64,000 nt of DNA from Stegostoma tigrinum (taxonomy: Eukaryota): assembly GCF_030684315.1 (NCBI RefSeq), contig NC_081380.1:10089575-10153574 (forward strand), read 5' to 3'. Shown one piece after another: positions 5,028 to 54,003 of this stretch. Made by a program: the position numbers and the translations under genes. The first letter of the stretch is position 1. Every line of letters starts with the position of its first letter. The notes under the pieces are model-generated. The model was not told where the DNA came from, did no database searches, and saw only the letters and a program-made list of their open reading frames with translations.

Positions 5028-5247
5028 AAGATAATAAAATGTGAGGCTGGATGAACACAGCAGGCCAAGCAGCATCTCAGGAGCACAAAAGCTGACGTTT
5101 CGGGCCTAGACCCTTCATCAGATGAAGGGTCTAGGCCCGAAACGTCAGCTTTTGTGCTCCTGAGATGCTGCTTGGCCTGCTGTGTTCATCCAGCCTCACA
5201 TTTTATTATCTTGGAATTCTCCAGCATCTGCAGTTCCCATTATCTCT
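5028..5247. mobile_element. Neptune-like PLE terminal fold-back: perfect 92-bp arms around a 1-nt spacer plus a 35-nt tail
   Basis: 5028-5119 is the exact reverse complement of 5121-5212. TSD gatgcctttctaa at 5017-5029 and 5248-5260. The sequence matches the terminal repeat at 25923-26020. Confidence 0.92.
5094..5121 (-). ncRNA. Minimal type I hammerhead ribozyme motif (PLE-associated)
   Basis: Minus strand reads CTGATGA-A-GGGT(CTAG)GCCC-GAAA-C-GTC: conserved CUGAUGA and GAAA core, stem II, palindromic ACGT stem III and GUC cleavage triplet. Confidence 0.75.
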
Positions 5248-5764
5248 GATGCCTTTCTAACACAGTTCTTCACATCCTGCTTCTGCAATTTCTGGAATGC
5301 AGCAATGTATGAACAATTAAAGTTTGACTGCCTGCTGTTCAGTCAGATATTTTAGGGTTTTTTTTCACTTCACTCACACCAGTTGTATGATCCTTTGATT
5401 TCTGTGCCCTTCATCTCTCTGCCAATAAACTCCTGTGTCTGTGTGCTCTCCTCTCACTTCACCTGAAGGAGCTGCACCACAAAAGCTTGTGATTTTAAAT
5501 AAACCTGTTGGATTATAACCTGGTGTCGTGTGATTTTTGACAGTGAGAGTTTGGGCAGACGTTAGTGTGGGGTGGGGCAGGAGCTGGGGGAGCTTGTGGC
5601 ACATGATACATGGTGCCAGTATCTATCTGTCAGAATGGGTAAATAGGGCAATAAACAGAAACAAAAAGGATACTCATGTCCAGGGTGGTAAAAAGATAAC
5701 ACTTACATGAATCAGAGTGATCAATCCACGTAATGAATGTCCACAATTAGTTAGGGGAAATTAA

Positions 5765-6078
5765 GGGCGGCACGGTGGCTCAGTGGTTAGTACTGCAGAC
5801 TCACAGCACCAGGGACCCGGGTTCAATTCCCGCCTCAGGGGTGTAGAGTTTGCACATTCTCCCCGTGTCTGTGTGGGTTTCTTCCGGGTGCTCCAGTTTC
5901 CTCCCACAGTCCAAAGATGTGCAGGTTAGGTGGATTGGCCATGCTAAATTGCCCATAGTGTTCAGGGGTGCGTGGGTTATAGGGGGGATGGGTCTGGGTG
6001 GGATGCTTCAAAAGGGCGGTGTGGACTTGTTGGGCCGAAGGGCCTGTTTCCACACTGTAGGGAATCTAATCTAATCTA
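5765..6078 (+). mobile_element. HE1-like V-SINE, near full length
   Basis: gggcggcacggtggctcagtggttag head, B box ggttcaattcc, V-domain, (ctaat)n tail. Confidence 0.9.
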
Positions 6079-6269
6079 AAAGAATTAGGAATCATTTGAG
6101 ACAGAACAACTTACCACAAAATGAGGGGAGGGAAAATCGAGGAACTTATTGGAAAGTTGAACCACTGGACCAAATGATCTTCAGTCATTGTTATTTCTGG
6201 CCCTCACCTTCAAGAGAAAACCAGAAAGTATCCGCAGTTTCAAAGAATAATGATGAATATGCAAAAATC

Positions 6270-6890
6270 TTCATAACAAGAGGATTTGCATATAGGATCA
6301 AGGATGTCTTGCTGAAAACATACAGGGCATTGGTGAGACCACATCTGGTACATTGTGTGTAGTTTTTGTCTCTTATCTGATGGAGGATGCTCTTGCTGTA
6401 GAGGGAGTGCAGCGAAGGTTTACCAAATAAATTCCTGGGATGCCAGGACTGACGCATGAGGAGAGATTGAGTTGATTAGGATTATACTCATAGGAGTTTA
6501 GAAGAATGATACGAGGATCTCATCGAAACCTATGAAATTCGCACAGGATTAGCCAGGTTAGATGTGTGAAAGATGTTCCCAGTAGTGGGGTGCTCAGAAC
6601 CAGGGGTCATAGGTTAAAAGGGCAATTATTTTAGGACGTGAAATGAGGAGAAATGTCTTCCCCCACAGAGTGGCGAGCCTGTGGGATTCACTGCCACAAG
6701 TATAGTTGTGGGTCAAGACATCATGTGTTTTCTAGAAGGAGGTAGATATAGCTTTTCTGGCTGAAAGGATCAAGGGATACTGGGGAGGGTGGGATTAGGG
6801 TATTGAGCTCGGCGATCAGCCATGACTTACTGAATGGTAAAGCAAGCTCAAGGAGTCAAAAAGCTTACTCCTGCTCCTATGCTTCTATGT
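6270..6890 (+). mobile_element. CR1 LINE 3' fragment, degraded
   Basis: ITRGFAYRIKDVLLKTYRALVRPHLVHCV followed by a CR1 3'UTR ending cttctatg. Confidence 0.85.
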
Positions 6891-7565
6891 GTAACTACAC
6901 CGAACACGTTGAGTCCTGTGGGAACTCTGTCAGTTTCAATTAGGTCGCGTCTCATTCTTCAAAACTCTGGAAAGTGCAGAGTTTCCTCAATCTTTCTTGT
7001 GTAGATTCTCCAACATGGGGAAACAATTTCTCTGTGCTTACTGAGGCAAGAACTTCAGAAACCTGTATGGTTCAACACAACTGTCATTCTAAATGTGTTT
7101 TGTAAATTACAGGAGGAACTATGTGCAATTTCTTCTCAGACAGTCATAGAGTCATACAGTATGGAAACAGACCCTTTGTCCCCAGTCCTGAAATCCATCT
7201 TAACACAACTCTCTCATCCCAGGGGGCCAATCTAGTAAGCCTTTCGACATTGTCTCCAGAGTGAGGGTCAACTTCCTAAAATATGGAAACTCAAACTGCA
7301 CCAGCAGCCTGTTCTATTACAGCAACATTTATTTATTGTTGTACTCCAATCCTATTGCAATAATGACCAACAAGTCACCTGTCCTCCTAAATACTTGCTG
7401 CATCTGCCTGCTAGCTCTTCAGTTACACCAGCCTTTAAATATTTTTCAAAATGAGGTATGAATTTTACATTTTTTCTCTTTTTACAACTCAAAGTGAATA
7501 ATCTCATGCCTCTCCATATTATCCATGTGTCACCTTCTGATCCAGTCAGGTAAACTGTCTACCAC

Positions 7566-7825
7566 AAAAACAGAAATTGCTGGTGAAACTCAGCAGGTCT
7601 GGGAGCAGCTGTGAGGAGAACGCAGAGTTAATGTTTCGAGTCTGAACTTCAGAAGGACTTGGAACATTAACTCTGGGTCTAGCGGCATCTATGGAGAGAA
7701 AGCAGACTCAATGTTCCACGTCCTTCTGAAGTTCAGACTCAGAGCGTTAACTCTGCTTTCTCTCCATAGATGCTGCCAGATTCATCAGGTTTCTCCAGCA
7801 ATTTCTGTTTTTGTTTCAGATCTCC
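7566..7825. mobile_element. Fold-back terminal fragment of a third PLE-like family with nested inverted repeats
   Basis: aaaaacagaaattgctgg...ccagcaatttctgttttt arms. Related copies at about 37890-38265, 38870-39090 and 61925-62065. Confidence 0.65.
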
Positions 7826-8774
7826 TGCTCTTCGTTTTATTTTATGCAATCTGTCTACATCTCTTTGTAGCCTCTCTGCGTCCTCCTGAGAGACTAGTCC
7901 TTTGTATTGTCAGCAAACCTGGTCAGATTACTTTCTGTCTCAGTAACTGATATAGTTTATCAATAACCAAGGCCCTTGCAGCACTTCACTAGTTACGGCC
8001 TACTGACTAGAAAATACCCATTTATCCCTCCTGTCTGTTTTCTGTCCATTAACCTCTACAGATATTTTCTCATCAACCTCTTCTGAGATGTTACACATCT
8101 CTGCAGCACGTGCAGCTTAAACCTGGACCTCATGGTCCAAAGGCAGGGTCACTACTGTTATGCCACAATAGCCCTCTTTAACTTCTAGATACTAGCCACA
8201 AAACCCCAAGGGCCTTGCGTTGTGTATTCATGCTCTGTGTGGCATCTGCAGTCTCAGGAATCAGGTCTCTTTCCCCGATAAAAGTCTGTGCTACAAGCAA
8301 GGGGGAAAGGAGATTTTCAAGAAGCTGTAAAAATGAGGATTAAGTTTTGCTTTGTAATAATGAGCCTGTTTAAAGGCTTGTAGGTTAATTCTGTTCTTCT
8401 CAGTCTTCAGCCCATTATTAGGATAACAGGCTAGTTTCCTCTCTACACTAGACCAACCTGGATTTGGAGTCAATCAACACCCAAAGGCCTCTTTCTTGTT
8501 TGGGGAAAGGCAACACTATACCAGTTACTCCACAAACTTGCGCCAACATCAATAGACCTCATATTCCACAGAACGGTCAGCATGGTTAGGTCAAGTACAT
8601 ATCTTCCTGTTGTTTCTGTCAGCATAGACATGGTGGGCCAAAGGGTTTTCCTCCTTTGTGTCTCCATGACATTCTGTGCCAACTGGCTGCCCATCCTCTG
8701 GAATCAGTGAACCATCCTCAATTGTCACAGGTCAAATATTCCTTCTCACTGTCGAAATAAAGAATGTTTTGTAT

Positions 8775-9240: not shown

Positions 9241-9726
9241 GATGATGAGGAACTCTTGAGTCTGGTTTGGATCCAAAGAATCAATGTACTGTCTCCAGGC
9301 CTCAGGTAAACCTTGTTATTTAATGTTAAAAAAGCAAGACTTATTCTTTTTGGAACTACTTACTTAAAATACTCCATCTTTAGTGATATATCATGTGATG
9401 TTGACCTTAAAGAATCTCAGTCAAGGCAAAGTTTAATTTTTAAAAGTGTGGTTGAATGGATTTTAGTGCACGGATGTTGAGTGAATTTCTTATCCTTAGT
9501 GATCATTTTCTGAAATCCTTGCAGTGCTGGAAATGTTTCAGGAGTTAATTGTTATTTTCTTCTTGGAACCTAGAACACAAACAATTCTCTCTCCTCATTT
9601 TAAGCATTCTTCTAGTCTTTTAAACTTTGATTTGGTATGAGAATGACTCTCGCGTGATGAATACAGACAAGAACATCTACAAACTTGTTACCTTTTGTTA
9701 CAACACAGGCAACCAAACCAATCAGT

Positions 9727-9833
9727 TAGCGAGTTTTGAGAAGATTTGTGGCTCCGGTTGAGGTTCTGGATGTGAGTTTGCTCGCTGAGCTGGAAGGTTA
9801 GTTTTCAGACGTTTCGTCACCATTCTAGGTAAC
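9727..9833 (-). mobile_element. Very short Poseidon-like PLE 3' end, truncated within hammerhead stem II
   Basis: Matches 2395-2501. TSD aaccaatcagt at 9716-9726 and 9831-9841. Confidence 0.85.
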
Positions 9834-11114
9834 CAATCAGTCTTTCCACATCTGTCTCCGCAAAGCAGTAAAATTAAAACCAAAGACAACTCAAAATTGA
9901 TTTCAATGGTTCCTGACCAGACTTCTGAATACCCCATCCTAGACTTTGCGAATAATCAATTCATTGGATAAACATATAGATAACAATGGAATAGTGCAGC
10001 TTAGATGGACTTCAGATTAGTTTCACACGTTGGCGCAACAGAGGGCCGAAGGACCTGTATTGAACTGTAGTGTTCCATATTCTATGTACATTTCCCCTTC
10101 CAAACCACTCAACATCCTGACTTGGAAATGTATTTCTCCTTTTGCTTTTGCCAGCCCAAAATCCTGGAACGCCCTCCCTCACAGCACCGAGGACTGCAGC
10201 AATCCAAGTTCAAGAAGATAGCTCTACACCATCACCTCCAGGATAAATACAGATGGCCAATAAATGCTTATCCAGCCACTGAGGCCCAAATCCCATGAAC
10301 AAACATTGTTAAAACCTTTATAACAATGCTGAGAAAATTACAAACGCACAATCCTGTCAACAGGTGCCAGTACTGGGCACCTTAAACTTGCGTCCTGCTG
10401 TCAACTGTGATAGGATCACAATTTGCAAATTATATCTAGGATCCTGCCTGAAACAAACAATGTTCACTTTGATCAATGTCACTGAAACATTTGTTTCTTC
10501 AGGTGGACGGTACCAGTAAAATTACATGCCCATTAAGCCAAGTATGAACAGAAATGTAATATATTAACTTTATTGTCATGGCTTACGAGTCTACCAATGT
10601 CCTGCAGTTTACGCCAATCATTTGATTTGATCTTTTGATTGATTACTTTCTAAATGATAAAATATATGAGAAACAATGGATGTCCAAAGATGTTTTGGCG
10701 TTCTTGCACATAGATGACTAGGGAAGGCGGTCTGTCATATTTTGAGGAGTGGATTATAATGGGATTGGAGTCATCTTTCAGCAACACAAAGTCTTGGCTC
10801 ATGTACACCTGGATTATTGTGTTCATTTCTGGACTTTAGAAAAATATAGTGGGGATACTTCAGCACTTACTTACCAAAATTAAATCTATTCTCCAAGGAT
10901 CAAGTTAAGGGGAGGGGTTTCATAAGCAAGGGTTGTATTGTTTGGAATTTACAAGCTTATGGAGTGATTTGATGAAAATTTCCAAGATATTACAGGGAAC
11001 AGAGACACTTTGCTGTTTGAAGAGTCTAGAACTGAATAATATCGTCCAAAAATGAGAGGCTGGCCTGCTGTATTCTAATCCTCGTGAAGCAACAAACAGC
11101 CTTCCCTAATAATC

Positions 11115-11275
11115 TGTGGAGCTGGATGAACACAGCTGGCCAAACAGCATCTCAGGAGCACAAAAGCTGACATTTCGGGCCTAGGATCTCATGAGATGCT
11201 GCTTGGCCTACTGTGTTCATCCAGCTCCACACTTTGTTATCTTGGATTCTCCAGCATCTGCAGTTCCCATTATCA
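11115..11275. mobile_element. Neptune-like PLE terminal fold-back insertion
   Basis: Inverted arms of the same terminal sequence. 17-bp TSD cttccctaataatctgt at 11101-11117 and 11276-11292. Confidence 0.9.
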
Positions 11276-11931
11276 CTTCCCTAATAATCTGTTGCATGAG
11301 CCCCTAAATAACTTTGGACATCCACTGGCTCCTGCTTTTTATCATTTAGTAAGTAATCAACCAAAAGAAAGCTCCTATCAGTTCCCTTCAATGACTGATG
11401 TAAACCACATGGCCTCGTTAGGCTCATCAACAAATAAAATTAGGAGTGAAATTAGGAACCATTTCTACACACACACAAAGGTGGAGAGATTTGATACGTT
11501 GTTCTGCAAGTAGCAGCTGAGACTAAGTCAACTGGCCATTTTAAACAGAGTTAGATAGATTGATGCGTCTTATCCCAAGATATTAAATGTGAAATGAGAC
11601 AATGAAAAGCTTCATGAACTAATCTCAATCTCATTCAATAAGGGCTAAATAAGCTTCCTTCAGTTTTGACAATCACAAGCTAAATGACTACACAGCAGTG
11701 GGCTTGGAAATAAAATTCAAAGGAAATGAATGCAGATCTTGCTTTGAGAAAGAAAACAGCACAACTTTAGAGCTGGACATTTTCCTGCCTAGTTTCGGTA
11801 TTGGAGGACTTGCTTTAAATCTCAACAGGGCACAGTTAACCTCAGGGCAGATGGCAAAAGCTGTGATCAACAATTTACACACTGGTGAGTCTATCAACTA
11901 TCAATGTCCCCTCAGGAATGAAAGAACTTAC

Positions 11932-12479: not shown

Positions 12480-14400
12480 CTGAAAACCAACACAGTAAAA
12501 GAAAGGATCAGTTTGAGGGATATGCTAGTTCCATTTCAGAATTAATACATGTATAGATCAACAACAAATTTGGAAAAGGTTAAGTATAGGGGATATCTTT
12601 ACCAGTACAGTCATTGAACAGCATGCACTGAGCAAAAAACAGTAAATAGTAGCCTATCAATATGCTAGGTCCTAACAATGGACTTCATTCCCACAGTATT
12701 ATATAACAAAAGCCCTAATCTCACCAATACTGGGTGACCACTATAGATGTCAATGATATGAAGAAATGAACTACCGAGAAGCATAAAAGAGAAGGACCAA
12801 GAGGAAGCAGGAGTACAAAGGAAGAGGAAAGTTGCAGATGACATTCAGGGATGGAAAGTCACTCTGAGGTGAGGAACTAAGTTTTGAAGAGCCGTGCTAA
12901 GCCTACTGATAGGGAGGCAGGATAGTGGATCAATCCAGACCAGCCTTACCCTAGCCGGTCAATGGTTAGAAAATTAATTATTGGCAAGATTATACCATGT
13001 TGAAAACACTCCAATTAAAATGTCTGGACTTCGGGGACCTTGGGTTTACAAGAGGACAAAACTGCTAAAACTAGGTTGCAGCAAATAGAAAGATAATAAT
13101 GCAAGACTGTGAGATAGAGAAAAAAAACCAACAACTAGGAAACCTATGACTGAGCAAGAATTAAATCAAATTAAAAAGGAAATAGGAACAGCAAATAATG
13201 GATAGAATGAATGAAAATGAAGGGATCTGAAATATCTTTGTTTAGTATTTTGTATCAATGTTTACGGATGCTGACTGGGGTACTGAAGAATGTAGAACAG
13301 CCAAATATGGAGGTACCAATCCAAAGAAAGCACTGTCACAAATTATCAAGTATTCTAAAGCCAATAAAGTGCCCTTTAAAGTATAGTTATTGTTGTGATG
13401 TCGGAAACATGGCATGAAATTGTGCACACCAAGATTCCACAAACAACAATGAGATAAATACTTCATTGCTTATCGTTCACCGTGGCATCTTTCATGACGT
13501 GCCGGGAAGCATTTTGGAAAATATGTTTCATTTCTGCATTAAAAATATTCCATTTATAATTTACAACATACTAGAATACTAGAAGTTTATTTACTTGGAA
13601 GCTGACTGGTGCACACCTTTCATGATATACATTGATATTTACCACATTTTCATTACACATTGTTGAAAATAGGTTTATCAATGAAGTAAAATAGCTTTAT
13701 TCAGGGGTGGAAATTATCCACAGTCATTTCAAATAATAAACAGATTCTGAAACTAAGAAACGGTTCTGTTTATAAAGGTGTTTATTAGTCAGCTTCCTAG
13801 TAAATTAACTTCTAGTAATTAACTGCTTTATAAAAAAGGTGTCAATTAATTCCCCCGAGGCTAAAAAAACAGCTTTAGAGAGCTTCCTCAAATATTCACA
13901 AACAACAGAAACTCACCATAGTGGTAATTATGACCAACACAGAACACAATATTTTCTGGACTAGCAACGACCTTGGAAACTAAACTCAGCTTAATTTGTG
14001 TTTGGAATTTCTTGATGAAATAGCAGTGCAACCACTAATCTCTAGAGTCCCCAACACTTCATCCCTTCATGCATCTTCCATCATTGTGAATTTGGAAAAC
14101 AGCAAGTCATCAACTCTTTATGGAAACCAGAAAGTTGGCAAATAAAGAGATTGCAGTGAATGTTGCACACAGGAATTTTCATAATATGTTTACATTCCAT
14201 AAAACTTTATATTAAGCTTGATGCACATTATATCAGCAGAATTGTGCTGGATTTAAAGCGAATGGTTGGGTTAAGTCAGCATCTTTCCACATTGGCAATG
14301 TGTGCACAACAATCGGCAATCTGTGCTTTCATGAATTTCTTTCATTGTCCATTTATGGAGAAATTACTTGGATGGAAGCACAAGTAAAGAAGGCAAGTAA

Positions 14401-14534
14401 GACCCATCTGGGGAAGGGTCTGGGCCCGAAGTGTCAGCCTTCCTGCTCCTCTGACGCTGCTTGGCCTGCTGTGTTCATCCAGCTCTGCACCTTGTTGTCT
14501 CAGATTCTCCAGCATCTGCAGTTCCTACTATCTA
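14401..14534 (+). mobile_element. Short Neptune-like PLE 3' end starting at the hammerhead
   Basis: gaagggtctgggcccgaagtgtcagc...cagttcctactatc. TSD taaagaaggcaagt at 14385-14398 and 14535-14548. Confidence 0.88.
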
Positions 14535-15629
14535 TAAAGAAGGCAAGTGATGCTCAAATGTACAAAGATTAGGCTTCAGTTGGAGACTTGCAAACAGATT
14601 ATAGGAAGAAGATATGCAAAGCCGGGTTAATGACTCTCACCAGGACTAATGAGGCAGTCAGAGTAGCTTCCTTCTGTTCTAGAAGTCTAATATACTGAAA
14701 TAGGAAAGACACATCATCTCAATTGACAAAGGATTTCCTACACAAAACACCTTATGTAGATCTGATCAACTCAGTGGCATTAAATGGATTCTGTAACATT
14801 TGCTTTATGAAATATTTTCAGTGATATGCACATTGTATCCTGATTAATGGACCATGTTTTCCCAAACTAGCCCAATTACCATTCTATGTTCCAGTTGTTG
14901 TGGTAATAATACTCTGAATGTCTAGAGCTTTACAAATGAACTCACAAAGCCAGGTTAAACCTTTGATGCTCCAATATGCAATGCATCTCAAGTCTCTGAA
15001 ACAGAACTGGTGGTCATGCATCTGCCGAAATTCTCTTGGTGGAGAGCCGACGGGCACTTCCTGATCTCGCAATAGTGAAGGCTAAAGACTGACTCTGCTG
15101 GTGTTTTGACTTGTCTGCACAGAAGGTCCAGGGAGAGAACACTGTCCTCATCGATTACAGATGAAACAGGAATGGAGGTGTTATGCTCTTCTACAGAGGT
15201 AAGAGATATGACATCACTGTTGCATTGTTCCTGGTCAGAGTTTGACCTCACGTCTCCAGAGCTGATGGTTAATGATGGAGATAAATGTCTTCGAGTGTGA
15301 ATAACTATATCTCACTAGATCTCAACTTAACTTTTCAGGAGTGAAATTTTGGACTAGATTTTCTTGTAGCTTGTGTCGACAGAAGTTCACCTCATCTGAA
15401 GTGACTGGGATAAATGTGAAGTGCAAATGCTTATCCAATCAGCCTTAAAATGTTTGGATGGCAACTCCTCAATTGTACCTTCAGGAGCTGAGTGGGAATA
15501 TCCTGCTCATTTTAAACTGGAAGGTCAAATTTTCTTTGTTTCACTTAATACAAAAACACAAGTGACAGGAGAACTAGAATCTGGAGGACGTGATTTCAAC
15601 ATCCACAACATATTTTGGTTGTGTAATAG

Positions 15630-24722: not shown

Positions 24723-25214
24723 GGCAGACAAACAGTGAATTTATTTGCATGTGGACTGCGTTGTTGTTTTGCAGAGATCTTGAACAATAGCCCACTTGCA
24801 AGCAAAGTCTGGCCGTTCAAGTCCTCACTATCTCGGTGCCAACAAATTGTTTCAACCTCTGTTGGCCAGGAAGACAAACGACTGAAAGAGAATCAGTACA
24901 GAGACAAAGTGCAGTGAGGGACAGTTCATGCTTCAATATCAACTGAAAAGAAAGGAGAAGTTATACTGACTACACTGATGGTCTCAAATGTTTTGCTGTC
25001 TGTGAAATAAAGCGTCTTACAAATTTGGGGTTGGGGGGGATGCGGGGATTGGAACCACTGGCGACAGAATGAGGCCACCAGTACAGGGTGAATTCCTGTA
25101 GTATCTTACCTTGCATGTGTGCCTGTCTGTGCATAATTAAGATACCTTTGTGTGCTCGGTTAATTACTTCACTTTGCCTTACAAACCAAATCAAACAACT
25201 TCAACCCACGTTAC

Positions 25215-25339
25215 AGAGATAGTAGGAACTGCAGATGCTGGGAAATCTGAGATAACAAGGTGTCAAGCTGGATGAACACAGCAGGCCAAGCAGCAGAGGA
25301 GCAGGAAAGCTGATGTTTTGGGTCAAGACCCTTCTTCCG
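25215..25339 (-). mobile_element. Short Neptune-like PLE 3' end truncated at the hammerhead core
   Basis: Terminal repeat ending ...gggtcaagacccttcttc on +. TSD aac(c/t)cacgttac at 25203-25214 and 25340-25351. Confidence 0.85.
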
Positions 25340-25922
25340 AACTCACGTTACTTTTCTCTACGTTTGGAAAGATCACATCAGTCCCTGTGTTACTAGAGAC
25401 AGGCAATGGGAGGCAAGCTCTTGGGGAAAAAGGAGGCAACTAGTACATGTTAAAGGACTAGGTGAAACTCCTGAGTCCAACTGCAAACCCAAATGAAAAC
25501 ACTCTCCGTTCCAAAGGTATCCAAGGAAATGAAACTGGCGACAGTCACAACAAACTCACCCCTAGTGAGTGGGGAAACTATGGATCAAATTTCTGAAAGA
25601 CCACACAAATAGTCAAGTACTCGCATGGAGTTTGCGGTGCACGAGGCCAATCAGCAGCTCCATCCAAACAGAACTAAGATTCCCAGAACTCCCTGTTGTT
25701 TACCTCACAGCGACAGTGAGAGGGTTAGCGCAGCTTTTCTGGATGGTGCGCGCCGCCTATAGATGTGCACCAGGACTTTTCTGCGGTGCCAGCCTCTGGC
25801 CGCGCTGTCCAGCCCTGCCAGCATCTAGTCTGTCCATCACCTCACAGTGATGCGTGGTTAAATGCTGATCCATACAGGGAGCTAGCTGAGGGGGCCGGAT
25901 GGACCAGCGCAGGGAGTATTTC

Positions 25923-26810
25923 CAAGATAACAAAGTGTGGAGCTGGATGAACACAGCAGGCCAAGCAGCATCTTAGGAGCACAAAAGCTGACGTTTCGGG
26001 CCTAGACCCTTCATCAGAGAGGGGGATGGGGTGAGGGTTCTGGAATAAATAGGGAGAGAGGGGGAGGCGGACCGAAGATGGAGAGTAAAGAAGAGAGGTG
26101 GAGAGAGTGTAGGTGGGGAGGTAGGGAGGGGATAGGTCAGTCCAGGGAGGACGAACAGGTCAAGGAGGTGGGATGAGGTTAGCACGTAGGAAATGGAGGT
26201 GCGGCTTGAGGTGGGAGGAAGGAGGAAGGGATGGTTGAGAGGAAGAACAGGTTAGAGAGGCAGAGACAGGCTGGGCTGGTTTTGGGATGCAGGTGGGGGG
26301 AGGGGATGAGCTGGGCTGGTTGTGTGATGCTACTGCAGGAAGTGCTACACTTGCCCCCACACCTCCTCCCTCACCCTCATCCCAGGCCCCAAGATGACTT
26401 TCCACATTAAGCAGAGGTTCACCTGCACATCTGCCAATGTGGTATACTGTATCCATTGTACCCGGTGTGGCTTCCTCTACATTGGGGAAACCAAGCGGAG
26501 GCTTGGGGACCGCTTTGCAGAACACCACCGCTCGGTTCGCAATAAACAACTGCACCTCCCAGTCGCGAACCATTTCCACTCCCCCTCCCATTCTTTAGAT
26601 GACATGTCCATCATGGGCCTCCTGCAGTGCCACAATGATGCCACCCGAAGGTTGCAGGAACAGCAACTCATATTCCGCTTGGGAACCCTGCAGCCGAACG
26701 GTATCAATGTGGACTTCACCAGCTTCAAAATCTCCCCTTCCCCCACTGCATCACACAACCAGCCCAGCTCATCCCCTCCCCCCCACTGCATCCCAAAACC
26801 AGCCCAGCCT
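25923..26810. mobile_element. Neptune-like PLE: inverted terminal repeat (25923-26330, -) plus GIY-YIG endonuclease segment (26331-26810, +); direct 3' repeat mostly missing
   Basis: ORF 26394-26873: FTCTSANVVYCIHCTRCGFLYIGETKRRLGDRFAEH...EQQLIFRLGTLQPNGIN (GIY-YIG). Confidence 0.92.
25990..26017 (-). ncRNA. Minimal type I hammerhead ribozyme motif with intact core
   Basis: Minus strand CTGATGAAGGGTCTAGGCCCGAAACGTC. Confidence 0.78.
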
Positions 26811-27096
26811 TCCTTTCCCCAAGGAGAACTGTCCCCAACTTCTCCAAGTCTGGCCTCATCACAGAAGTTATGACTGAAGCTAATAACTGAAGGAGCTGCC
26901 CGAAAATATCCCTCAGGAAAATCAACCTGGAAAACACTCAATATAGTAGGAGAAATGCAGAGTCTGAAGTTCAAACGTCACCAACTGGATGCTTAAACAC
27001 ACCGACTTTCCCCGAATGCTCTCCCCATTCTGTTGTTAAAGCATAGTTCCTTGACCAATAAGAAGTATAGGCAGTTAAAGAACTGAATGCAACTTT

Positions 27097-28652
27097 ATTA
27101 AGATTGACAAGTCTCCAGGCCAGGACCAGATTTGTCCTCGGCTGCTTTGGGAAACGAGAAATGCAATGGCTTCGCCACTTGCGAAGATCTTTGCATCCTC
27201 GCTCTCCACTGGAGTCGTACCTGAGGACTGGAGAGAGGCAAATGTAATTCCTCTCTTCAAGAAAGGAAATAGGGAAATCCCCGGCAATTATAGACTAGTA
27301 AGTCTCACGTCAGTCATCTGCAAGGTGTTAGAAAGGATTGTGAGCGGTCGGATTTATGACCATCTGGAAGAGCGTGGCTTGATTAAATGCAGTCAACACG
27401 GCTTTGTGAGGGGCAGGTCATGCCTCACAAACCTTATTGAGTTCTTTGAGGATGTGACTAGAAAAATTGATGAGGGTCGAGCTGTGGATGTGGTGTATAT
27501 GGACTTCAGTAAGGCATTTGATAAGGTTCCCCATGGTAGGCTCATTCAGAAGGTCAGGAGGAATGGGATACAGGGGAACTTAGCTGTCTGGATACAGAAT
27601 TGGCTGGCCAACAGAAGGCAGCGAGTGGTAGTAGAAGGAAAATATTCTGCCTGGAAGTCAGTGGTGAGTGGTGTTCCACAGGGCTCTGTCCTTGAGCCTC
27701 TACTGTTTGTAATTTTTATTAATGACTTGGATGAGGGGATTGAAGGATGGGTCAGCAGGTTTGCAGACGACACGAAGGTTGGAGGTGTCGTTGACAGTAT
27801 AGAGGGCTGTTGTAGGCTGCAGTGGGACATTGACAGGATGCAGAGATGGGCTGAGAGGTGGTAGATGGAGTTCAACCTGGATAAATGCGAGGTGATGCAT
27901 TTTGGAAGGTCGAATTTGAAAGCTGAGTACAGGATTAAGGATAGGATTCTTGGCAGTGTGGAGGAACAGAGGGATCTTGGTGTGCAGATACATAGATCCC
28001 TTAAAATGGCCACCCAAGTGGACAGGGTTGTTAAGAAAGCATATGGTGTTTTGGCTTTCATTAGCAGGGGTATTGAGTTTAAGAGTCGTGAGATCTTGTT
28101 GCAGCTCTATAAAACTTTGGTTAGACCGCACTTGGAATACTGCGTCCAGTTCTGGGCGCCCTATTATAGGAAAGATGTGGATGCTTTGGAGAGGGTTCAG
28201 AGGAGGTTTACCAGGATGCTGCCTGGACTGGAGGGCTTATCTTATGAAGAGAGATTGACTGAGCTTGGACTTTTTTCATTGGAGAAAAGGAGGAGGAGAG
28301 GGGACCTAATTGAGGTATACAAGATAATGAGAGGCATAGATAGAGTTGATAGCCAGAGATTATTTCCCAGGGCAGAAAAGGCTAACACGAGGGGTCATAG
28401 TTTTAAGCTGGTTGGAGGAAAGTATAGAGGGGATGTCAGAGACGGGTTCTTTACACAGAGAGTTGTGAGAACATGGAATGCGTTGCCAGCAGCAGTTGTG
28501 GAAGCAAGGTCATTGGGGACATTTAAGAGTCTGCTGGACATGCATATGGTCACAGAAATTTGAGGGTGCATACATGAGGATCAATGTTCGGCACAACATT
28601 GTGGGCTGAAGGGCCTGTTCTGTGCTGTACTGTTCTATGTTCTATGTTCTAT
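27097..28652 (+). mobile_element. Young 5'-truncated CR1 (HER1-like) LINE, RT domain, one in-frame stop (TAG 27862-27864)
   Basis: ORFs 27166-27864 and 27865-28563 share a frame: NYRLVSLTS, QHGF, DFSKAFDKVPH, GVPQGSVL, FADDTK. (ttctatg)n tail. Confidence 0.96.
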
Positions 28653-33025: not shown

Positions 33026-35295
33026 CACAATATCATACCTGCCAATTTCAATCTGTGCTACAAGCTCATTTACTTGTCTTGTATACTGCATGCATTTAAG
33101 TACAACACCCTCAGTCCTGTATTGACCATGCCCCTTGTCGCAGAGCTGTCTCCTTATCTGGTGTACCTGAAGTTAGGTTTCTGACGCTTTCCACACTCTC
33201 AGTCCTATTACCAATTCTGGAAACTTTAATAACCTCTGTTGAGGCCTCTTCTCCCTTCAACCAGTTCAATGTTGAGGAAAATAGCAGAGGAAAGAGGACT
33301 GATTATTACCAACTATGATCATTCAGTTAAGGCTAGGTGCATTTCTGGTGACAGATATTGCCTCCTGAGGGAGAACATGGAGAAGGGACGAGTACCCCTA
33401 GGGCTCTGATCAACAGAGGAAACAAGGGCTGAGGTTCTGCTGTGGGAGTCTGAAGATCCACCAAAACCTCAGAATAATCTCTGGAGTCCTCCTGAGAACC
33501 AAAAGCAAATTGGCAAAAGCCAGACCGGTTTAGAAACATGGCTAACACAGTGGTCTGGGATCACTTCAAGGGACACTGCAGAAAGAGGGAACTGTTCCTT
33601 TGCAAACAGAATCCACTTAGGCTCAGCAGGAACCTGCACTCTGGCAAAATGCAAACTCGCGTGGTAGTTTGAGCTGTAAAACAATATGGGGTGGGGGAGG
33701 GGGCGCTTGTACGGTTAAGGTAAGCTTAAAAGTGAACTCTAGTAAGAAATGTTCCATTCACCTGAATACACCTGTGATTGAAGCTGACCACTGAAGATGG
33801 TTTGGAAATAGAAGCCAATTCATGCAGCTCCACTCCTCAGAATTTCCACCATCCTGTGGAGCTGCAGATTGTAGGTTAGGGTACAAAACATAGGCAGAGC
33901 AGAACAATTTAGCACTGAGATGGCTATGTCAGGAGCAAGGAAAGAAAACCAGACAGGTTTTCCGTCCACAGATAAATGTGTCACAGCTATTAGTCCAGTC
34001 AACGAGGTAAACTACATACTAGGCTCCTTGTAATCATTAACTAGTGGCACTATACCTGAAGAAACGCTGCACAAATTCAGTTATTCATGGGCCTGTATGT
34101 TCCACTGCCAAGCAACAGTCTGTTTTTTTTTAAGAAAGAAAAACCCCTTTTGAAGAAGAAGAGCAGGTGTATACCCCAGCCCATGTCCCAGTCAGCAGAA
34201 AGCCACAGTCAGTGAGCCAGGACAACATTCCTCTTCTCATTCAGTGAGTTTCTCCCGGAGGAGCACCCTGTTCACTCCGAATGTGCAGGTGAAGCTACAG
34301 GGCATCACCCAGCACCGCTGCCTGCGACAAAGCATTGCTTTGTATCCTCATGACCATTGATCAGAACGCCATATCATGATTGGACAAACTGTCCATTTTG
34401 AAATACATATGTTGCAATTAAAAGAAATACAACCAAAAGATGACTCTGGATGTTTGTTCAGTAGCTCTCTGGAGAGGAGGCTTAGATTCTTGCACCTGCA
34501 AGTGTTGACGAGGTATCAATGGGTTACAAATTAAACGGTGAACATCTCAGACCATGAATGTGACGAGATAAAAGACAGCAATCTGGGAAAGAAATACAGT
34601 GGAGATTCCTCTTTTAAGATTACACAGGGACCCAAATTGAAAACCTGGCATATATGTGCTAGTGGGCTGCAGTATTTGTATGTGCTCACCTTGGTTTCAG
34701 AACTAGAGTGCTGTGAAAGTCACAGTTAAAGGAATTCCTGCACTTCAGGTAAAGGACACGCTCACTCACTGCTGGAAACCAGCCAGCAATAAGAAATAGG
34801 ACAAATGAATGACAGTTAACCTACAAAGGCCAATAGTCTCAACATCAACTGTTCCTAATTTCCAGATTTACAGCGATACATCAATAGTGATACCTCCCCT
34901 TCAACGATCAACCTTGTTGAATTACCACAATAATAAACCAAACTGAATCCCACCAATGAAAGTGCCAGTGTTAAAGCAAACTGCATTATTACATTTTCTC
35001 TGGGGTAGTCTGCGCCCTGCCTACGCTTGGCATTACCACACAATTACTTCAACCTTGTTCTGTAGCCTCGTGGCTCTATCCCACACTGGAAGTCGACCTC
35101 CTCAAAAAACAGTTTTTATTCTCATTTGCCAAAACAGTGGCATTACTGTACGAGTGGCATTTCCAACTGTGTTAAACATTTCCGTGTGGAGACTCCTTCC
35201 CACTCCCTTTCTAAGTAACAGGCAGAGTGGGCCATGGTGAGGGAAGCCATGTGACATGATAGGAACGTGCAGCAGTGTGGGCACAGAATTGTATC

Positions 35296-35498
35296 GGAGA
35301 TAATGGGAACTGCAGATGCTGGAGAATCCAAGATAGTAAAGTGTGAAGCTGGATGAACACAGCAGGCCAAGCAGCATCTCAGGAGCACAAAAGCTGACGT
35401 TTTGGGCTTACACCCATCTAGGCCCGAAACGTCAGCTTTTGTGCTCCTGAGATGCTGCTTGGCCAGCTGTGTTCATCTAGCTTCACAATTTATTATCC
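35296..35498. mobile_element. Neptune-like PLE terminal fold-back insertion
   Basis: Inverted arms joined inside stem II. Imperfect TSD tgggc(a/t)cagaattgt(a/g)t at 35278-35294 and 35499-35515. Confidence 0.88.
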
Positions 35499-36369
35499 TG
35501 GGCTCAGAATTGTGTTTTCTTTACGAGAACTAAATCACGCGACAGTCCAACTGAATGAGCGAACATCATCAGGTGAGTCCTTTAAGAGAGTGGAGTTTTG
35601 TGCAAAGCAATTAATCTGTACCTAATCTGTATCTGTTCCCAGTCCCGTGGAATTAAACAGGAAAGCCCCAAGCGGCTGCATTTGCAAACCCAGCGCCAAA
35701 GATTCAGTTGTCATTGCCCTCCCCCACTCAGTGTACCCTCCAATGATAAAACAATGCACAAGACAAGCCAAGTGATGTGCAGTGTTGATAGAACAGAATG
35801 CTACCATTACAGGCACCGAACCTCCCTTACATTCATTCACGAATAAAGAACAAATGGGCATCAAAAAGTCCTTCTTATTAAAAACAAACCAACTCAAGAC
35901 AAAAGATGTAGGCAATTATTTTACACAGCAAGGTTAGTTCTAGGTGTAGTTCATGCAGCAATCTTGTTCATTTGAATTCTTGCTGCTTCTATTATTGAGC
36001 TGAATTATCAGGCAAATGGTAGGATGACTCGGGTCATTCTCGGTCACTCTTTAATCCTGGATAGGGACTTCTTTTTACCCCCTGCAAAGACTCATATGGA
36101 AAGTTAAAACAAATTCATGGGCAATGCATGCTCAGATTTACACTGTGGAAGGAGTATGTGTCTCTGTGCCAGGCTGTATACTGGCAAGGGCACACGCGGC
36201 AGGCTATCCTCACATTAATCCTATCTGGTGCCCAAAGCAAAAGCCTTTGGGAGTGCAGCTGGAAGTTGTCCTCAGGGTCAAATGAAGCAAATAAATCGGG
36301 CATGTTCAAGAGATCAAAGTTAGGGGAAAGCAGAGATCTTGGAGGGTCGGGATCTGGGATCTGGGATCA

Positions 36370-37590: not shown

Positions 37591-39449
37591 ACAGAGAATC
37601 TGAGTAAATGTTGACAATAAGTCAGGCTCAGTATTGAATCTGACAATTTCTATTTGCAATCACTGCTCCCCTCACGTCAGAGAGCATGTATTGGTAATGA
37701 TTCTGCTGTTGTCCATCACAGCTCCTCAATTCGAGAAAGGAAGGATTTATCTTGTCCCACTGGCTGGTGCCATCATCCCTGTTACTTTTTCAAAATGCCA
37801 GGCTTCAGCCTATCACAGGCCTTCTCTTTTGTTCTTCTCCCCCAAAACGCTGGCAGCAATCCTGCTCCATCTCCAGCCTTCAATTAAAAGCAAAAAAATT
37901 GTGGATGGTGGAAATCTGAAACAAACACAGAATGCTGGAGAATCTCAGCAGCTGTGGAGACAGAAGCAGAATTACCATCTCCAGTGCAGTACAAATCTTC
38001 TTCCAAACTAAAAGGTTCGTGGATGTCCTGGACTCAAATGTCAATTCAGATTCTCCCTCCGCAGGTGCTCCAAGACCAGTTGAGTTTCTCCAGCATTCCC
38101 CAGGCTAGTTCCATCTCTGACCTCTGCCATTTCTGCCTAAAATGATTGTCAACCTCAAACATGAACTGGTTTCCTCCCTCCACAAGTGCTGCCTCACCTG
38201 CTGAGTACCTCTAACATTTCTGGCCCATTTCGTTAGGTCAGGTCTCCAGCCTCTGCAGTATTTTGCAATTAAATGTGCAAGATAATGTCATTGATGACTT
38301 AATTCCAAGTGTTTCCATGTTGTGCTAAGGGTGGAGACCTGAAGGCATAACAATTATAAAACAAAGAACACATATACCTAGACAGCAGTTGATAACAAAA
38401 ATGCAGTAATCAAGATAGTGGAGGCAAATATATGCAAATGTTAGAAATGGTAAAGAATATACTGTAAAATAGAGTTTGTGTGGACATCTATTTAGTCTCC
38501 ATTCCAATACCAGCTTGAAAGACAATCTGGCAGATAATCAGGAGGTGCAGTCCTTCACAGATACATGGTAGATAGTCTAACTGATGTGGTTTCACACAGA
38601 GGTTGATCCTTTGTGTTTCACATTAGAACGTGGCGCTAGTTACATCGGAAGAGACCAATCACAGATTAGTGCGGCCTCTTCCATGTGAATGAAGCAATGT
38701 TTATGAATTGGTGCTTGTTCATCACCAGTTATCCTCAGCAATGCTCTCAGCCTGCAGTCAGGTGACCCACCCCAAGATCACCTTTTTGTGAATCTGTGGA
38801 TCCAGTCATGGTCAGCTTCAGCTCATTTGGAGAATGGATCTAGCAGATTGTAAGAGATCCCGAGATCTAAAGAACCAAAAGAACTGCAAATCCTGTAAAC
38901 CAGGAACAGAAGCAGAAATGGGCACAGAAGTTGCTGGAAAAACTCAGCAGGTCTGGCAGCATCTGCGAAGAGAAATCAGAGGTAAAGATTCAGGTCAGTG
39001 GAAGGGTCACTGGAAGCGAAATGTTAATTTTGCTTTTTCTTCAAATGCTGCCAGACCTGCTGAGCTTTTCTAGCAACTTCTGTTTTTGATCCTGAGATCT
39101 GGACAGGGTCATGGATTAGACAGGTCAATGCTGAAATGGTCTGGCGGACTTTGTGAAAGATGCCCTTCAGTGCAGAATTTGGAGAACAGCGCAGGGTTAG
39201 AGTGGATGCCTCTGTGGTCTCACAAAGTCCAAATGGCAATGCAGCAAGACAGCACCCTGCATCTCAGGTGCAGTGTTCATTTTTGTTACGTTCTGTGAAA
39301 ATCTTGCCATGCTTCACTAAATTGAAGCAACCTATCATTCTTAGTTTGTTGCTGTTGAATGATACAACAAAAGAAAGTGTCTGTTGCTAACACAGGTCAA
39401 TCAGCATTACATTAAATAGAATGGTCATGAGTCTTTGTATTCTCTCTCG

Positions 39450-49330: not shown

Positions 49331-51172
49331 CTTAAAGAAGCTTTTACAGTCCACTTTTTAAGTTCAATCCTAGTTTATTCTTTTACTTTGCAGTCAGTAT
49401 TCCTTTGTGAACTTTCTAGATAAGTTGCATGATAATAATTAAGCTGCAAACATTCTAACTGGCTGCTTTCCTAATTTTACCCTGGGGATTGTGGGCAGCC
49501 AAAGTGTCCCTCCTGAAGCTCTGGCAAAAGTCAACTAAATCAATACAGAATGCAGGTTGAACCTGGGGCCTTTCTGTCTCAGGGCTCACTCTGACATATC
49601 TGGCAACTCAAATTATATTTTTAAGTGTACGTTGAATTACTGTACACTGAATGAAATAATGGAAATATGTATGAACAGATTGACTGGACATTTAAATTGT
49701 ACCCCTATCTCCTTGACTTTTCAAGGGGGGGGGGGCGGTGACTGTAATACTGAGCAGCAGGATGTCTGATCAAACATTCAAATCAAGGCGGAAATCAGAT
49801 AGCTGAAGGCTGATCATCCACCAATACCACCAGCTAGCTACAGCTCCAAAGCTGGCCATCAGGTTGAAGCTAATGTCTGATAGCACAAGGTAATCACCGA
49901 GCTCTGGGAAGGAGCTTGCAACTGATTATCCATGTGGGCCCACCCAGAATCCTCTGCTGACCCTGAGCTCCTCTCCCCCCTGCCCCCCGGATGACCTGTT
50001 AGAAAATGCATAATGGATTGCTCATTCAGGTCTGTTATTACATTGGCAGTCAGGTCCAGACAACACCATTACAATCAAACATTCAAAGGAGGGCTCTGCA
50101 GGGGTTTTGCAAGTGTCCTTCCCGCATGCACTGGAAAGCTTGTTAAAATAAATGACAATGCAAATGCATCAGTGGGTACGTGCCCCTGTATGATTTTAAT
50201 TGCCCATTCTACCGGGTGGCAAGGGTTCAACTATCTGGCTCAGAACACAACGACAATGCCAACCCAGGACAGGGTGTGAGCAAAGGAACAGTTTCTTATG
50301 AACAGTACTCTCTCACCTGCATCACCAGCTAATTCTCCTGTGTCTTTTCAGTGAGAGGCACAGAGATTAGCTGCTAGTGAAGCTGCTGAGAACACTGCCT
50401 ATGCAGTGAGTGTGGGGAGTGGGATCTTTAGACAAATGCTTGTGAACCGTCCAAGTGGTATCTCACGTAAAGTCAGATTTGTTGGTTTCAAAGATAATGC
50501 TCAAAAGTCAAGCTTAAAGATGTAAGCATTCTCCCACAAAGAAAAGTGCACTAATACACTTACGCAATCCTAACGTGCCTCATTTTTATGGCCGGGAGGA
50601 AGTGAACACAAAGCAGCAAGGGATGAAAAGCACTGCCACAGCAACTTTGTAATAATGACTCACCATAGGAACTTTCGTTTTCTCCTTCATCCTCTGGCTG
50701 GTCAGGTTTCTTTCCCACTTTACTCTCCCACTGATTCCTTTCCATTTCATAACCCAGCTCTTCTCCTCCTTTTGCATTTCCATCTACACCCCATCTGTTT
50801 CTGTTGCACCTTCCTTTCTGTTCTTTCCCATTTTCTGTCCTTACACATTCTCCTCCTTCATATGGCAGTTCTTTTGTTCACTTATGCTTTCTTCAGCCCA
50901 TCTTTCTCCTTCTCTGTTTCAGTACCATTGCCTTCCTTTCTTCTGCCCCCTCTTCCTCCTCCAGGGTCTGCTCTCTGTGAGGCTGGATAACTGGGAGTGA
51001 AGGGGATGCTGGTTGGCTTGATTGTGCTGCATTAACAAAACCCCTTTTATACCCCATTAACCCAGAGAGACATCCTGCGATAGCTGCCTCACCCTGTCAC
51101 GTCCTTCCTGAAACCAACAGGGAATGGGGAAGAACAGCAATATCCTGGGCAATGGGCTATATGTTACACTGA

Positions 51173-51244
51173 GGGAGCATAGCTTAGTGGTGGCACAGTT
51201 GACTGCAGATCAAGAGGTCCCCAGTTCAAATCTGGGTGCCCGGC
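51173..51244 (+). pseudogene. tRNA-Cys(GCA) pseudogene
   Basis: GGGAGCATAGCTTAGTGGTGGCACAGTTGA-CTGCAGA-TCAAGAGGTCCCCAG-TTCAAAT-CTGGGTGCCCGGC aligns with vertebrate tRNA-Cys. The GCA anticodon loop and T-arm (CCCAG/CTGGG) are intact; the acceptor stem has 3 mismatches and the D-stem is disrupted. Confidence 0.85.
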
Positions 51245-51277
51245 TATACAAGCACCTCGACTGAACAGGAGCAGTAT

Positions 51278-51547
51278 TAGATGGCTCAGTGGTTAGCACT
51301 GCAGTGCCAGGGACCTGGGTTCGATTCTACCCTCCGGTACCTGCCCATGTGGAGTTCGCACATTCTCCTTGCGTCTATGAGGGTTTCCTCCCACAGTCCA
51401 AAGATGTGCAGGTTGGGTGGATTAGCTATAGGAAATGCAGGGTTGAAGGGATACGGGGGAAGGTTGGGCCTGGATTAGATGCTCTTCAGAAGGTTGGCGA
51501 AGGCCTCATGGGCTGAATGGCCTCTTTCCACAGTGGAGGAATTCTGT
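51278..51547 (+). mobile_element. HE1-like V-SINE
   Basis: atggctcagtggttagcactg...gggttcgattc, V-domain and CR1-like tail. Confidence 0.82.
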
Positions 51548-52571
51548 GTTCCAGTTTCCTCCTTTGTGGAAGACTATGGTTATCAGCTTTAATGCAATAG
51601 ACAAGTATCCTCTGGGTGTTACATAACAATCTAGTCAAAACGTGTCCAAACAACTCACCTTGAGCTGGGTGGAGGGGTTAGGATGGGATCTTAGCGGATA
51701 TACAACACAGACAGGCCTGATCCTGTATGTCAAACGGAGCTGTGCTGGGTGGAATTTTCAACTGCCCATCCATAGGCCCCATTCTCCACTTCAGTATGAC
51801 AACTATTGGTGCTATAGGTCAATGCCCAAAAGCTCTATGAAAAAATGGCAAGTCTCCCCGAAGCAGGTGAAGCGCAGGAGGCTAAAGAATGGGAAATATG
51901 GAGACAGATACTCATCTCCCACATAAGTCTGTAACTGTCCTAATGCAGAACATTCATTTTAAAAAGCTGATTGCGGATCATGGAGGAGGCAAGGCTGAAG
52001 GTAAGCCTTGGGAACTGCCTAATACTAATGCGCTGGGGCTTGGTAAGACTTTCTAGAAACAGGCAACTGGAGATGGTTGGCGCCTCTCCCCTGTTGAGGC
52101 CCTTGTTATCTCAGCAACGTTCTGTCCATATACTCGGCTAAATCAGTCTCTGCATCTGTACAAGCAGCAGTGCCCTCAAATGCACAGTCCTCACAGTGGT
52201 AAATGCAAAAGAAGATGTCAAATAAAGAGATTCTAATAATATTTGCATATGCCTTTTGTGTCAGTGTGTAAGTCACTGCTTCATTCCATAGCTGTGTGAC
52301 CTTCTCCAGCCCTGAAAACCTCAGACCTCTGCAAATTGAGGCCTCCTGCTTATCTCTGATTTTAATCGGCACTTCTGCGTTCAGCTCCCAAGACTCTAAC
52401 CTCTGGAATCACCTCCTTAAGCCACCTTCCCTTCCTCTTCAGGTAGTTCTGTAAACCTATCTTTCTGACCACCTTTGGGGCTGAGTCCGCAAATATCCTG
52501 TTAAAAAGACCTGGGGTCATTTTGAGTTTGAATATTCAGCTGTGATGCCAGCACTCAAAATGTACAGTGAG

Positions 52572-52625
52572 GTGGAGGGTTGGGTGGAGGGTTGGGAGGG
52601 GGTTGGGGCGGGGGGACGGTGGCGG
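52572..52625 (+). repeat. G-rich tract with G-quadruplex potential
   Basis: ggtggagggttgggtggagggttgggagggggttggggcgggggg contains more than four G3 runs. Confidence 0.75.
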
Positions 52626-52809
52626 TGAAGAAAGAAAATCGCTTGTGACACAGCAAAATCCCCCAGGGGTAAGATTATTCACAGCAGTGACCACTCAGAA
52701 GGAAGTTCTGGGACTCTAATTCCCCAGCATTGACGACTCAGCCCAGGCATCACGGTTCGTCACGTCATGCAGCATTGTCAGACGTTTGAGTAAATTATGT
52801 CAGTGCTGA

Positions 52810-52970
52810 TGCACTTTAGGGAAGGAAACTATCATCCTTACCAGGTCTGGCCGACATGCGACTCCAGACCCACAGCAACGTGGTTGACTCTTAACAGCCC
52901 TCTGGGCAATTGGGGATGCAATAAATGCTGCCCAGCCAGCGATGCCCTCATCCCACGAATGCATTAAAAG
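52810..52970 (+). mobile_element. SlmI/MetaSINE-like SINE, 3' half
   Basis: ctttagggaaggaaac...actccagacccacagcaacgtggttgactcttaac...aataaatgctg...catcccacgaatg. Confidence 0.75.
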
Positions 52971-53149
52971 AAACTTTTCAAATGGCAGTCATGACAACCA
53001 AGATTTTTTTCATGCTATTTCAGTTTTCCTTCATAAAAACAATTATATTCTGGTGGTGGACACATTGAGCTCAATTGGTGTATTTTAGAACACCTTTGTT
53101 TGCTGTTTGCTAACTGATGTGGGGTTAAACAAAGCACGGACAATAATCG

Positions 53150-53357
53150 AAGATAATAAAGTGTGGAGCTGGATGAACACAGCAGGCCAAGCAGCATCTT
53201 AGGAGCACAAAAGCTGACGTTTCAGGCCTAGACCGTTCATCTAAGCCTGAAACATCAGCTTTTGTGCTCCTAAGATGCTGCTTGGCCTGCTGTGTTCATC
53301 CAGCTCCACACTTTGTTATCTTGGGTTCTCCAACATCTGCAGTTCCCATTATCACTG
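53150..53357. mobile_element. Neptune-like PLE terminal fold-back insertion
   Basis: Inverted arms joined at the hammerhead. Imperfect TSD ac(g/a)ga(c/t)aataatcga at 53136-53150 and 53358-53372. Confidence 0.88.
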
Positions 53358-54003
53358 ACAGATAATAATCGATGTTGAAAGGCACGAATAAGATAGATTT
53401 GTTTTCGGTTGGTTTACTGTCGCAGGACAACAGTGTAGGGTGTCTACTTCGTGACTTGTTCAGAGTCTTTCAATGCATGGGAAATGACTGTTGGGGACAT
53501 GCTGTACTTTTAAGTACTAATTAGTACTTTTCTCTCAACTTGATCATTTGAATGAAGGTCTTGGCCCTTTCTAAAATGATGATAAAATTAAACTGAAAGG
53601 AAAACTGCCATCAGACCCCAAGAACATCACACTGACTATTTTTGACACAGTTTTGAACTCCAGGGGCACGTGTACTGTATTTTCTGTTGGTCAGGATTGG
53701 TTTACACTCAGACTCACTGGTTCTCCATTACAAACGTGAGCAGCTGCAGTTCCAGCCTTAAACCAGTGTTAACAGCTGCTGTAGATAAGTTTCAGGAATG
53801 AGCTCAACAATATCTTGATGCCCAGAGACCAATCTGCAATCTAACACTTTAGAAAGGACTGTTTCAGGCCAGTGGTTCCAGTCTGTGCTGACATTAGGGG
53901 AATGATAAAACCAAAAACGCTTTGCTGCAAAGTACATAAAGGTCTCAAAGTACTTTTAAAAATTATTGCACACTCGAAAGGGATCCCTGGCAAAGCCAAT
54001 GTT

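Follow-up and report, generated by a model that had tools for sequence, protein, structure and literature searches.

A 5′ wall beside the hammerhead ribozyme in short Penelope-like insertions of Stegostoma tigrinum

The 5′ ends of short Penelope-like element (PLE) insertions were mapped in a 64,000-nucleotide (nt) stretch of Stegostoma tigrinum DNA (the window; NCBI RefSeq assembly GCF_030684315.1, contig NC_081380.1, positions 10,089,575 to 10,153,574) and in a sample of the whole genome. The terminal repeat of these elements, a single copy of which is called an arm, contains a hammerhead ribozyme, which is numbered here from the C of its CTGATGA core (+1), with stem II at +9 to +20 and predicted cleavage after +28. 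A real positional signal is present in two Neptune-like families, A and C, and absent from a third family, B: the 5′ ends pile up in the few bases preceding the core, at a boundary referred to below as the wall. We consider it probable (roughly 0.7), from the sequence evidence, that the wall marks the start of the element's capped RNA and that run-off of the reverse transcriptase (RT) there yields dead-end copies of Neptune-type elements.

Position of the wall

The genome-wide sample comprised 157 evenly spaced 10-kb stretches (1.57 Mb in total) of the 3.2-Gb genome. Arms were anchored through the sequence 3′ of the ribozyme, and their 5′ ends were then mapped. Fourteen of 371 arms, lying less than 40 nt from a stretch edge, and 19 of the other 357, with no 3′ end, were dropped, giving a first end map of 338 arms; removal of seven family C arms, and removal or reclassification of long copies broken by insertions or deletions (indels), gave the 331 family A arms used here. 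Chance matches in the local alignment lengthen the mapped arms by about one base.

The stretch from −8 to −1 is the stopping point of 79 of the 186 family A arms that reach the core. The corresponding rate, 0.069 per nt, is 30 times that of the adjoining 42 upstream nt (p about 1e-42) and six times that of stem II (p about 1e-20). Moving from 3′ to 5′ across the 331 arms, the rates per nt are 0.0012 at +51 to +103, 0.0071 at +29 to +50, 0.0067 at +21 to +28, 0.011 in stem II and 0.021 at +1 to +8 and, beyond the wall, 0.0023 at −50 to −9 and 0.0012 further up; 67 of the 331 arms go past −370 or continue over an indel. The six-fold rise that begins some 50 nt 3′ of the wall (+51 to +29) may reflect trimming of complementary DNA (cDNA) ends, although this is a guess, and an apparent bump of ends at +44 to +46 is partly due to family C copies. 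Length bias was rejected as the cause of the clustering, as it cannot produce such a step.

The original prediction, made from the sequence of the window, placed the starts and fold-back points of the insertions inside the hammerhead. Genome-wide, the family A ends do cluster strongly at the hammerhead end and are neither uniform nor merely length-biased, but their maximum lies 5′ of the core rather than inside the ribozyme, and the GUC cut site is a minor peak only. In family C, the second Neptune-like family, 43 of 58 arms stop at −9 to −1, a count that includes arms in the window and comes from old copies whose positions are good to about 2 nt.

Family B, of which a C-terminal protein fragment was read and which we take to belong to the Penelope/Poseidon clade, with an RT–endonuclease open reading frame that has no zinc-finger-like linker, lacks such a stop. 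Two of its 25 sampled arms (duplicate L094 excluded) end 3′ of the ribozyme, three are cut in stem II and 20 pass, ending between −42 and beyond −326. In family A, 159 of 266 arms end at −8 to +28, and the families differ even with the three cut family B arms counted as stops (Fisher p = 1e-5), so that the rule does not extend to two PLE families in the way first proposed. The three cut arms (L181:2965, L146:8460 and L173:6671) are interrupted at +18 to +22 by the same A-rich 3′ end, apparently that of a long interspersed nuclear element (LINE) targeting this hammerhead.

Seven insertions in the window

The window contains seven PLE mini-insertions, six of family A and one of family B, which are present as first described and each have a target-site duplication (TSD) of 8–17 nt at their borders; by chance, a common 9-mer occurred between random 25-nt flanks in 0.4% of 2,000 trials. 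Four are head-to-head pairs of family A. The pair at 5017..5260 (+) (insertion 5028; 13-nt TSD, 5017–5029/5248–5260) consists of an inverted arm at 5028–5120 (+92 to −1) and a tailed main arm at 5119–5247 (+3 to +128). The pair at 11101..11292 (+) (insertion 11115; 17-nt TSD, 11101–11117/11276–11292) has a tail-less inverted arm running to +13 and a tailed arm from +39; that at 35278..35513 (−) (insertion 35296; 15-nt TSD with one mismatch, 35278–35292/35499–35513) has a tailed arm to +6 and a tail-less arm from +12; and that at 53143..53372 (+) (insertion 53150; 8–9-nt TSD, 53143–53150/53365–53372) has a tail-less arm to +3 and a tailed arm from +12. Two single arms belong to the A2 group of family A, one at 14385..14548 (+) (insertion 14401; −1 to +126, with a mutated core and 8 nt of filler; 14-nt TSD, 14385–14398/14535–14548) and one at 25203..25351 (−) (insertion 25215; −2 to +126; 12-nt TSD with one mismatch, 25203–25214/25340–25351). 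The family B single arm at 9716..9841 (−) (insertion 9727; 11-nt TSD, 9716–9726/9831–9841) starts at +9, where stem II begins, reaches about +112, and is an exception within its family.

Ten of the 11 arm ends in the window fall at −2 to +13 and the remaining one at +39; the view that all ends lie within the hammerhead is close to this, except that three of them are just outside the core. The two arms of each hairpin differ by about 36 nt at the 3′ end (near +92 versus +128), in agreement with the earlier description of inverted arms stopping 35–45 nt short, and the retention of stem II noted there likewise holds for most copies. The 5′-most end lies at −8 to +28 in 120 of 155 sampled short insertions, and all six family A insertions of the window are typical in this respect; the seven insertions are ordinary dead copies. 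Their independent origin, also proposed at the outset, is matched by the 80 pairs of the sample, in which 77 different junctions occur. With 77 of 80 junctions distinct and one arm 36 nt longer than the other, a single amplified miniature inverted-repeat transposable element (MITE) was rejected as their source.

Identity of the elements

Family A is assigned to the endonuclease-positive (EN+) PLEs of Neptune type, the clade call being based on the Cys-rich linker that precedes the GIY-YIG motif in its protein P0001. A zinc-finger-like linker between RT and endonuclease defines the Neptune clade (PMC8557442). Locus L281 (1769–5035, −) contains an open frame of 1,088 residues between two hammerhead repeats 3.6 kb apart, with matches to RVT_1 (E = 3.4e-5) and GIY-YIG (E = 0.0015) that are both weak and under the Pfam curated cut-off; a Cys-rich linker separates the two, and the N-terminal part of the frame carries a Thr/Pro-rich repeat insert. 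In all six long family A loci, hammerhead repeats lie at both ends, 3.4–3.6 kb apart, forming partial-tandem pseudo-long terminal repeats (pseudo-LTRs), and the 3′ ends of the family, at +92 or +126/128, correspond to known tail boundaries. The family was recently active. One 31-mer of its hammerhead has 89,060 exact matches in the genome, short and long copies pooled, and 45 of 80 sampled pairs retain an exact TSD of at least 9 nt.

A motif census found the features of a minimal type I hammerhead, namely the core, helix II, a palindromic helix III and a short helix I. This last helix has only 2 bp in family A; in family C it is a perfect 4 bp, formed by the four bases with which the predicted RNA begins. 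An Rfam scan of the window returned no hammerhead family match, and microRNA-like matches on hairpins only, below the gathering score.

The seven insertions are not tandem and in this respect are not non-LTR retrozymes, which consist of tandem hammerhead units. Elsewhere in the genome, family A does form short, retrozyme-like tandem arrays (L246/L247, L227, L238, L239 and L233), with units of about 160–360 nt or more (for example, −131 to +231 three times over) and a junction that is private to each locus and sometimes present in both arms. These arrays suggest copying round a small circle or a multimer.

A putative RNA start at the wall

The wall lies at a fixed distance from a promoter-like sequence. 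TATTTAT starts at −34 in A1a and at −35 in both A1b and A2; a pyrimidine-rich motif follows 30 nt later, at the wall. Family C, in which the upstream sequence is different, has a TATA-like box at −33/−34 in four of five long copies and at −38 in the fifth, together with TCAGTT at −6 to −1; for these motifs we presume that the names TATA, TCT and initiator (Inr) are apt. In A1a, −4 is the most frequent start (24 of 55 short arms, a set that takes in loci picked by pattern), and of the 24 arms beginning there 21 have a G just before the start (10 of 12 in which it is unexplained by the other arm), compared with 3 of 11 arms beginning elsewhere. An extra G at this position is what a copied cap would give.

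In the mechanism that we propose, the box and the initiator-like motif would form a promoter, and the capped RNA would begin 3–6 bases before the hammerhead core. The RT, primed internally 96–132 bases downstream, would run off the RNA start; the two ends of the cut target would act as separate primers, each at a different internal site (+92 and +128), and the two cDNAs would be end-joined head to head with trimming, short overlaps or filler. Joining of this kind may explain the gradient of ends reaching into the ribozyme, and stem II would be retained because a transcript with a single minimal hammerhead stays mostly uncut; a small share of templates is probably cut, which would account for the minor peak at +29. 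If short read-out transcripts of the 3′ repeats were used in trans, that would be a version of this mechanism rather than a rival to it. A terminal repeat that itself begins at the hammerhead would, on the terms of the original prediction, speak against it; an RNA start at the hammerhead now appears the likeliest state.

Several observations weigh against an RNA start at the wall. In A2 no excess of the extra G was seen (about 23 of 100 arms at −4 and about 29 of 100 at −5, among arms listed and counted by eye). An extended hairpin, +1 to +30, ends beside the wall, so that position alone cannot tell a start site from a structure. In family B a TATA-like box lies near −46, yet no wall follows 30 nt further on, which a start site does not explain. 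Finally, all six near-full-length copies that reach the core of the 5′ repeat run beyond the wall, ending at about −16, −50, −260, −380, −540 and −720, and a linear RNA beginning at −4 therefore cannot be the sole template.

A possible second template could be a circle produced by cutting at both repeats, as proposed in PMC4209133, or a read-through multimer; transfer of strands from one repeat to the other would fit equally. One tentative possibility, which we regard as less likely than not, is that in Neptune-type elements the hammerhead, four bases from the cap, sorts the templates: uncut capped RNAs would give stubs and hairpins, and RNAs cut at both repeats and circularised would give full-length copies that pass the start and rebuild a promoter-bearing pseudo-LTR. 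If this were true, the junctions would record how pseudo-LTRs regenerate and what the ribozyme is for.

Alternatives: release by structure or cleavage by the ribozyme

The hairpin beside the wall raises an alternative in which the stop is structural: cDNA of the extended hairpin would refold, and the enzyme would drop off on the pyrimidine-rich bases behind it. The predicted end of the hairpin at +1 adjoins the wall, the stop rate is already climbing from +50, and the spacing between wall and ribozyme is identical in families A and C and hence confounded. Arms on the coding side, however, cross the same sequence and rarely stop. At 28 independent loci in which the repeat continues into the start of the open reading frame (ORF) (L162, an insertion into the ORF of another copy, being excluded), the core is reached by 16 arms, none of which stops at the wall (Fisher p = 3e-4), and one of four such arms in the random sample stops. 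Each of these arms is pre-selected, having passed the wall once already; even so, their passage speaks against a stop that is inherent in the sequence. Moreover, family B shows no stop although its stem II is the stronger (predicted folding −6.7 versus −3.7 kcal/mol in family A), and a structure would leave both the fixed distance to the TATA-like box and the excess of G at −4 unexplained. We consider structural release unlikely.

It is less probable still that the ends chiefly record cleavage by the ribozyme. A local peak does exist at +29, which accounts for 30 of 100 arms listed from +18 to +35 by eye (19 palindromes and 11 others), compared with one to seven arms at each of the neighbouring bases from +24 to +34, and 756 exact palindromes lie at the cut site genome-wide. 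That count is inflated by the four bases after the cut, which are themselves palindromic; and in the sample only 3 of 331 arms start at +29, against 79 at −8 to −1, as do none of the 11 arms in the window. From the sequences, a minority of templates were likely cut at +28/+29. L226 and L228 are two copies with a break at the predicted cut site: in one, +201 is joined to exactly +29, and the other begins at +29.

Hairpin formation and the role of stem II

In 74 of 80 sampled pairs one arm is tailed and the other tail-less. The tail-less arm extends further 5′ in 34 pairs and the tailed arm in 22, with 18 equal, and the joints show an overlap of at least 2 nt in 19 pairs, are near blunt in 18 and contain filler in 43. 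Hairpins with the whole core on both arms number 8,028 genome-wide under a pattern that allows any joint of 0–14 nt.

These pairs bear on the cause first proposed for the ends, in which the near-palindromic stem II stalls the RT, leaving the cDNA to snap back or move to another template. Exact palindromes are numerous on stem II (507 in the genome, where a control palindrome at +56 has 21; the palindrome and hairpin patterns differ in length and degeneracy, and their counts are comparable in order of magnitude only), 3 of the 80 pairs are centred there, and 6 of the 11 arms in the window end at +3 to +13 or in stem II. Snap-back from the tailed cDNA, however, requires the tailed arm always to reach furthest, which is true in 22 of 56 unequal pairs; because folding back could never produce a tail-less arm that is further 5′, the model fails. 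Filler rather than overlap is found at more than half of the joints, the 43 pairs given above. Nor do the stops themselves favour stem II: its rate, one-sixth of that at the wall, does not significantly exceed the rates in the stretches on its 3′ side (p = 0.13 and 0.06), the 5′-most end lies in stem II in 10 of 80 pairs against 37 at −8 to −1, and among ends listed genome-wide by eye 69 of 92 are at +1 to +8 and 23 at +9 to +18, under a pattern that excludes perfect stem II palindromes. With the stronger stem II of family B causing no stop, stalling and snap-back are very improbable as the main cause. Stem II is instead one of several microhomologies, serving some joints without being the rule. 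Two primings from two target ends fit the arm order, and also the extension of two strands in vitro (see below).

A non-autonomous short element beginning at the hammerhead and amplified separately, similar to a MITE or to a short interspersed nuclear element (SINE), would suit the very high copy number (the 89,060 matches) and the occasional recurrence of joints (a symmetric −4 joint in 5 of 50 hairpins listed, by eye), but is very improbable in view of the 77 distinct junctions and of subfamily variants that are the same in short and long copies.

Relation to known systems

In LINE-1 twin priming, two primings occur at one target break, and the inverted part is copied from another stretch that lies upstream; priming from one break is shared with the insertions described here, in which both arms copy the same stretch. 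Retroviral strong-stop DNA is a short cDNA terminating at the RNA cap, as proposed here, but it is primed by a transfer RNA (tRNA) and is not inserted.

As described in the available text of PMC8557442, PMC3846280 and PMC2377424, EN+ PLEs share with family A an RT with a C-terminal GIY-YIG domain, pseudo-LTRs, 5′ truncation and a TSD, as well as head-to-head inverted copies with a 30–40-bp tail on one end. A TATA/Inr-like pair was noted in the pseudo-LTR of Adineta, but the 5′ ends are not mapped to a fixed wall in those parts of the three papers. Head-to-head palindromes were ascribed to self-priming on an antisense template (PMC3846280), whereas the arm order found here favours two primings on sense RNA. 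The origin of the head-to-head arrangement, the regeneration of pseudo-LTRs and the use of the ribozyme are called open questions in the same literature (PMC2377424, PMC3846280, PMC8557442).

An anole PLE studied in vitro cleaves and extends both target strands, with two internal starts bounding the tail and no need for ribozyme cleavage (PMC11167929). This element, Anolis Poseidon PAc, resembles family A in the extension of both strands, in an uncut RNA as the main substrate and in the two internal starts, which lie about 110–150 nt from the hammerhead. It differs in clade and in its ORF, which starts inside the hammerhead, whereas that of family A starts after the tail; the available account reports no reads found at the cut site and maps no start site (PMC11167929).

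The minimal hammerheads described from PLEs have the same core and palindromic helix III, with head-to-head pairs 100–700 bp apart (PMC4209133). Single minimal hammerheads did not cleave in vitro, in agreement with the retention of stem II by most copies here, and cut-and-ligate circles were proposed to account for tandems (PMC4209133). Neither positional statistics nor in vivo evidence is given in the available part of that paper; here the ribozyme is apparently four bases from the RNA start. Non-LTR retrozymes are likewise derived from PLEs with one hammerhead per unit, and the short family A arrays resemble them, but they are tandem where the seven insertions are single or head to head (bioRxiv 10.64898/2026.07.22.740005).

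The insertion architecture is already published. The positional rule, with 5′ ends at a fixed wall on a promoter-like motif beside a hammerhead, was not found in a literature search that covered few subscription papers and left supplements outside. The tens of thousands of junctions in this genome translate into base-level predictions, namely an RNA start at −4, two primings per break, an occasional cut at +28/+29 and a second template without the start.

Other copies in the window

Several window copies that cross the ribozyme were omitted from the original prediction. A longer family A arm at 25920..26330 (−) extends across both hammerhead and TATA-like box as far as about −305, and a long A2 copy at 57685..59300 (−), with a decayed endonuclease and a partial RT region, also crosses the hammerhead. 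Both arms of the family B head-to-head insertion at 1641..2503 extend past the hammerhead, to a joint more than 320 nt upstream of it; the arms are 98% identical and about 400 nt each, with the ORF end included. Family C, likewise absent from the original prediction, is represented by one or more hairpin-type insertions at 7564..7814, with arm ends near +10 to +27, and by a head-to-head insertion at 38924..39083, with arm ends near −6 and +18. A long family A copy at 26019–27900 (−), which adjoins a LINE fragment, has an internal inversion with 72-nt arms (26259–26330/26748–26819). A tRNA-like match at 51173–51242, slightly above the Rfam gathering score, is probably the head of a SINE.

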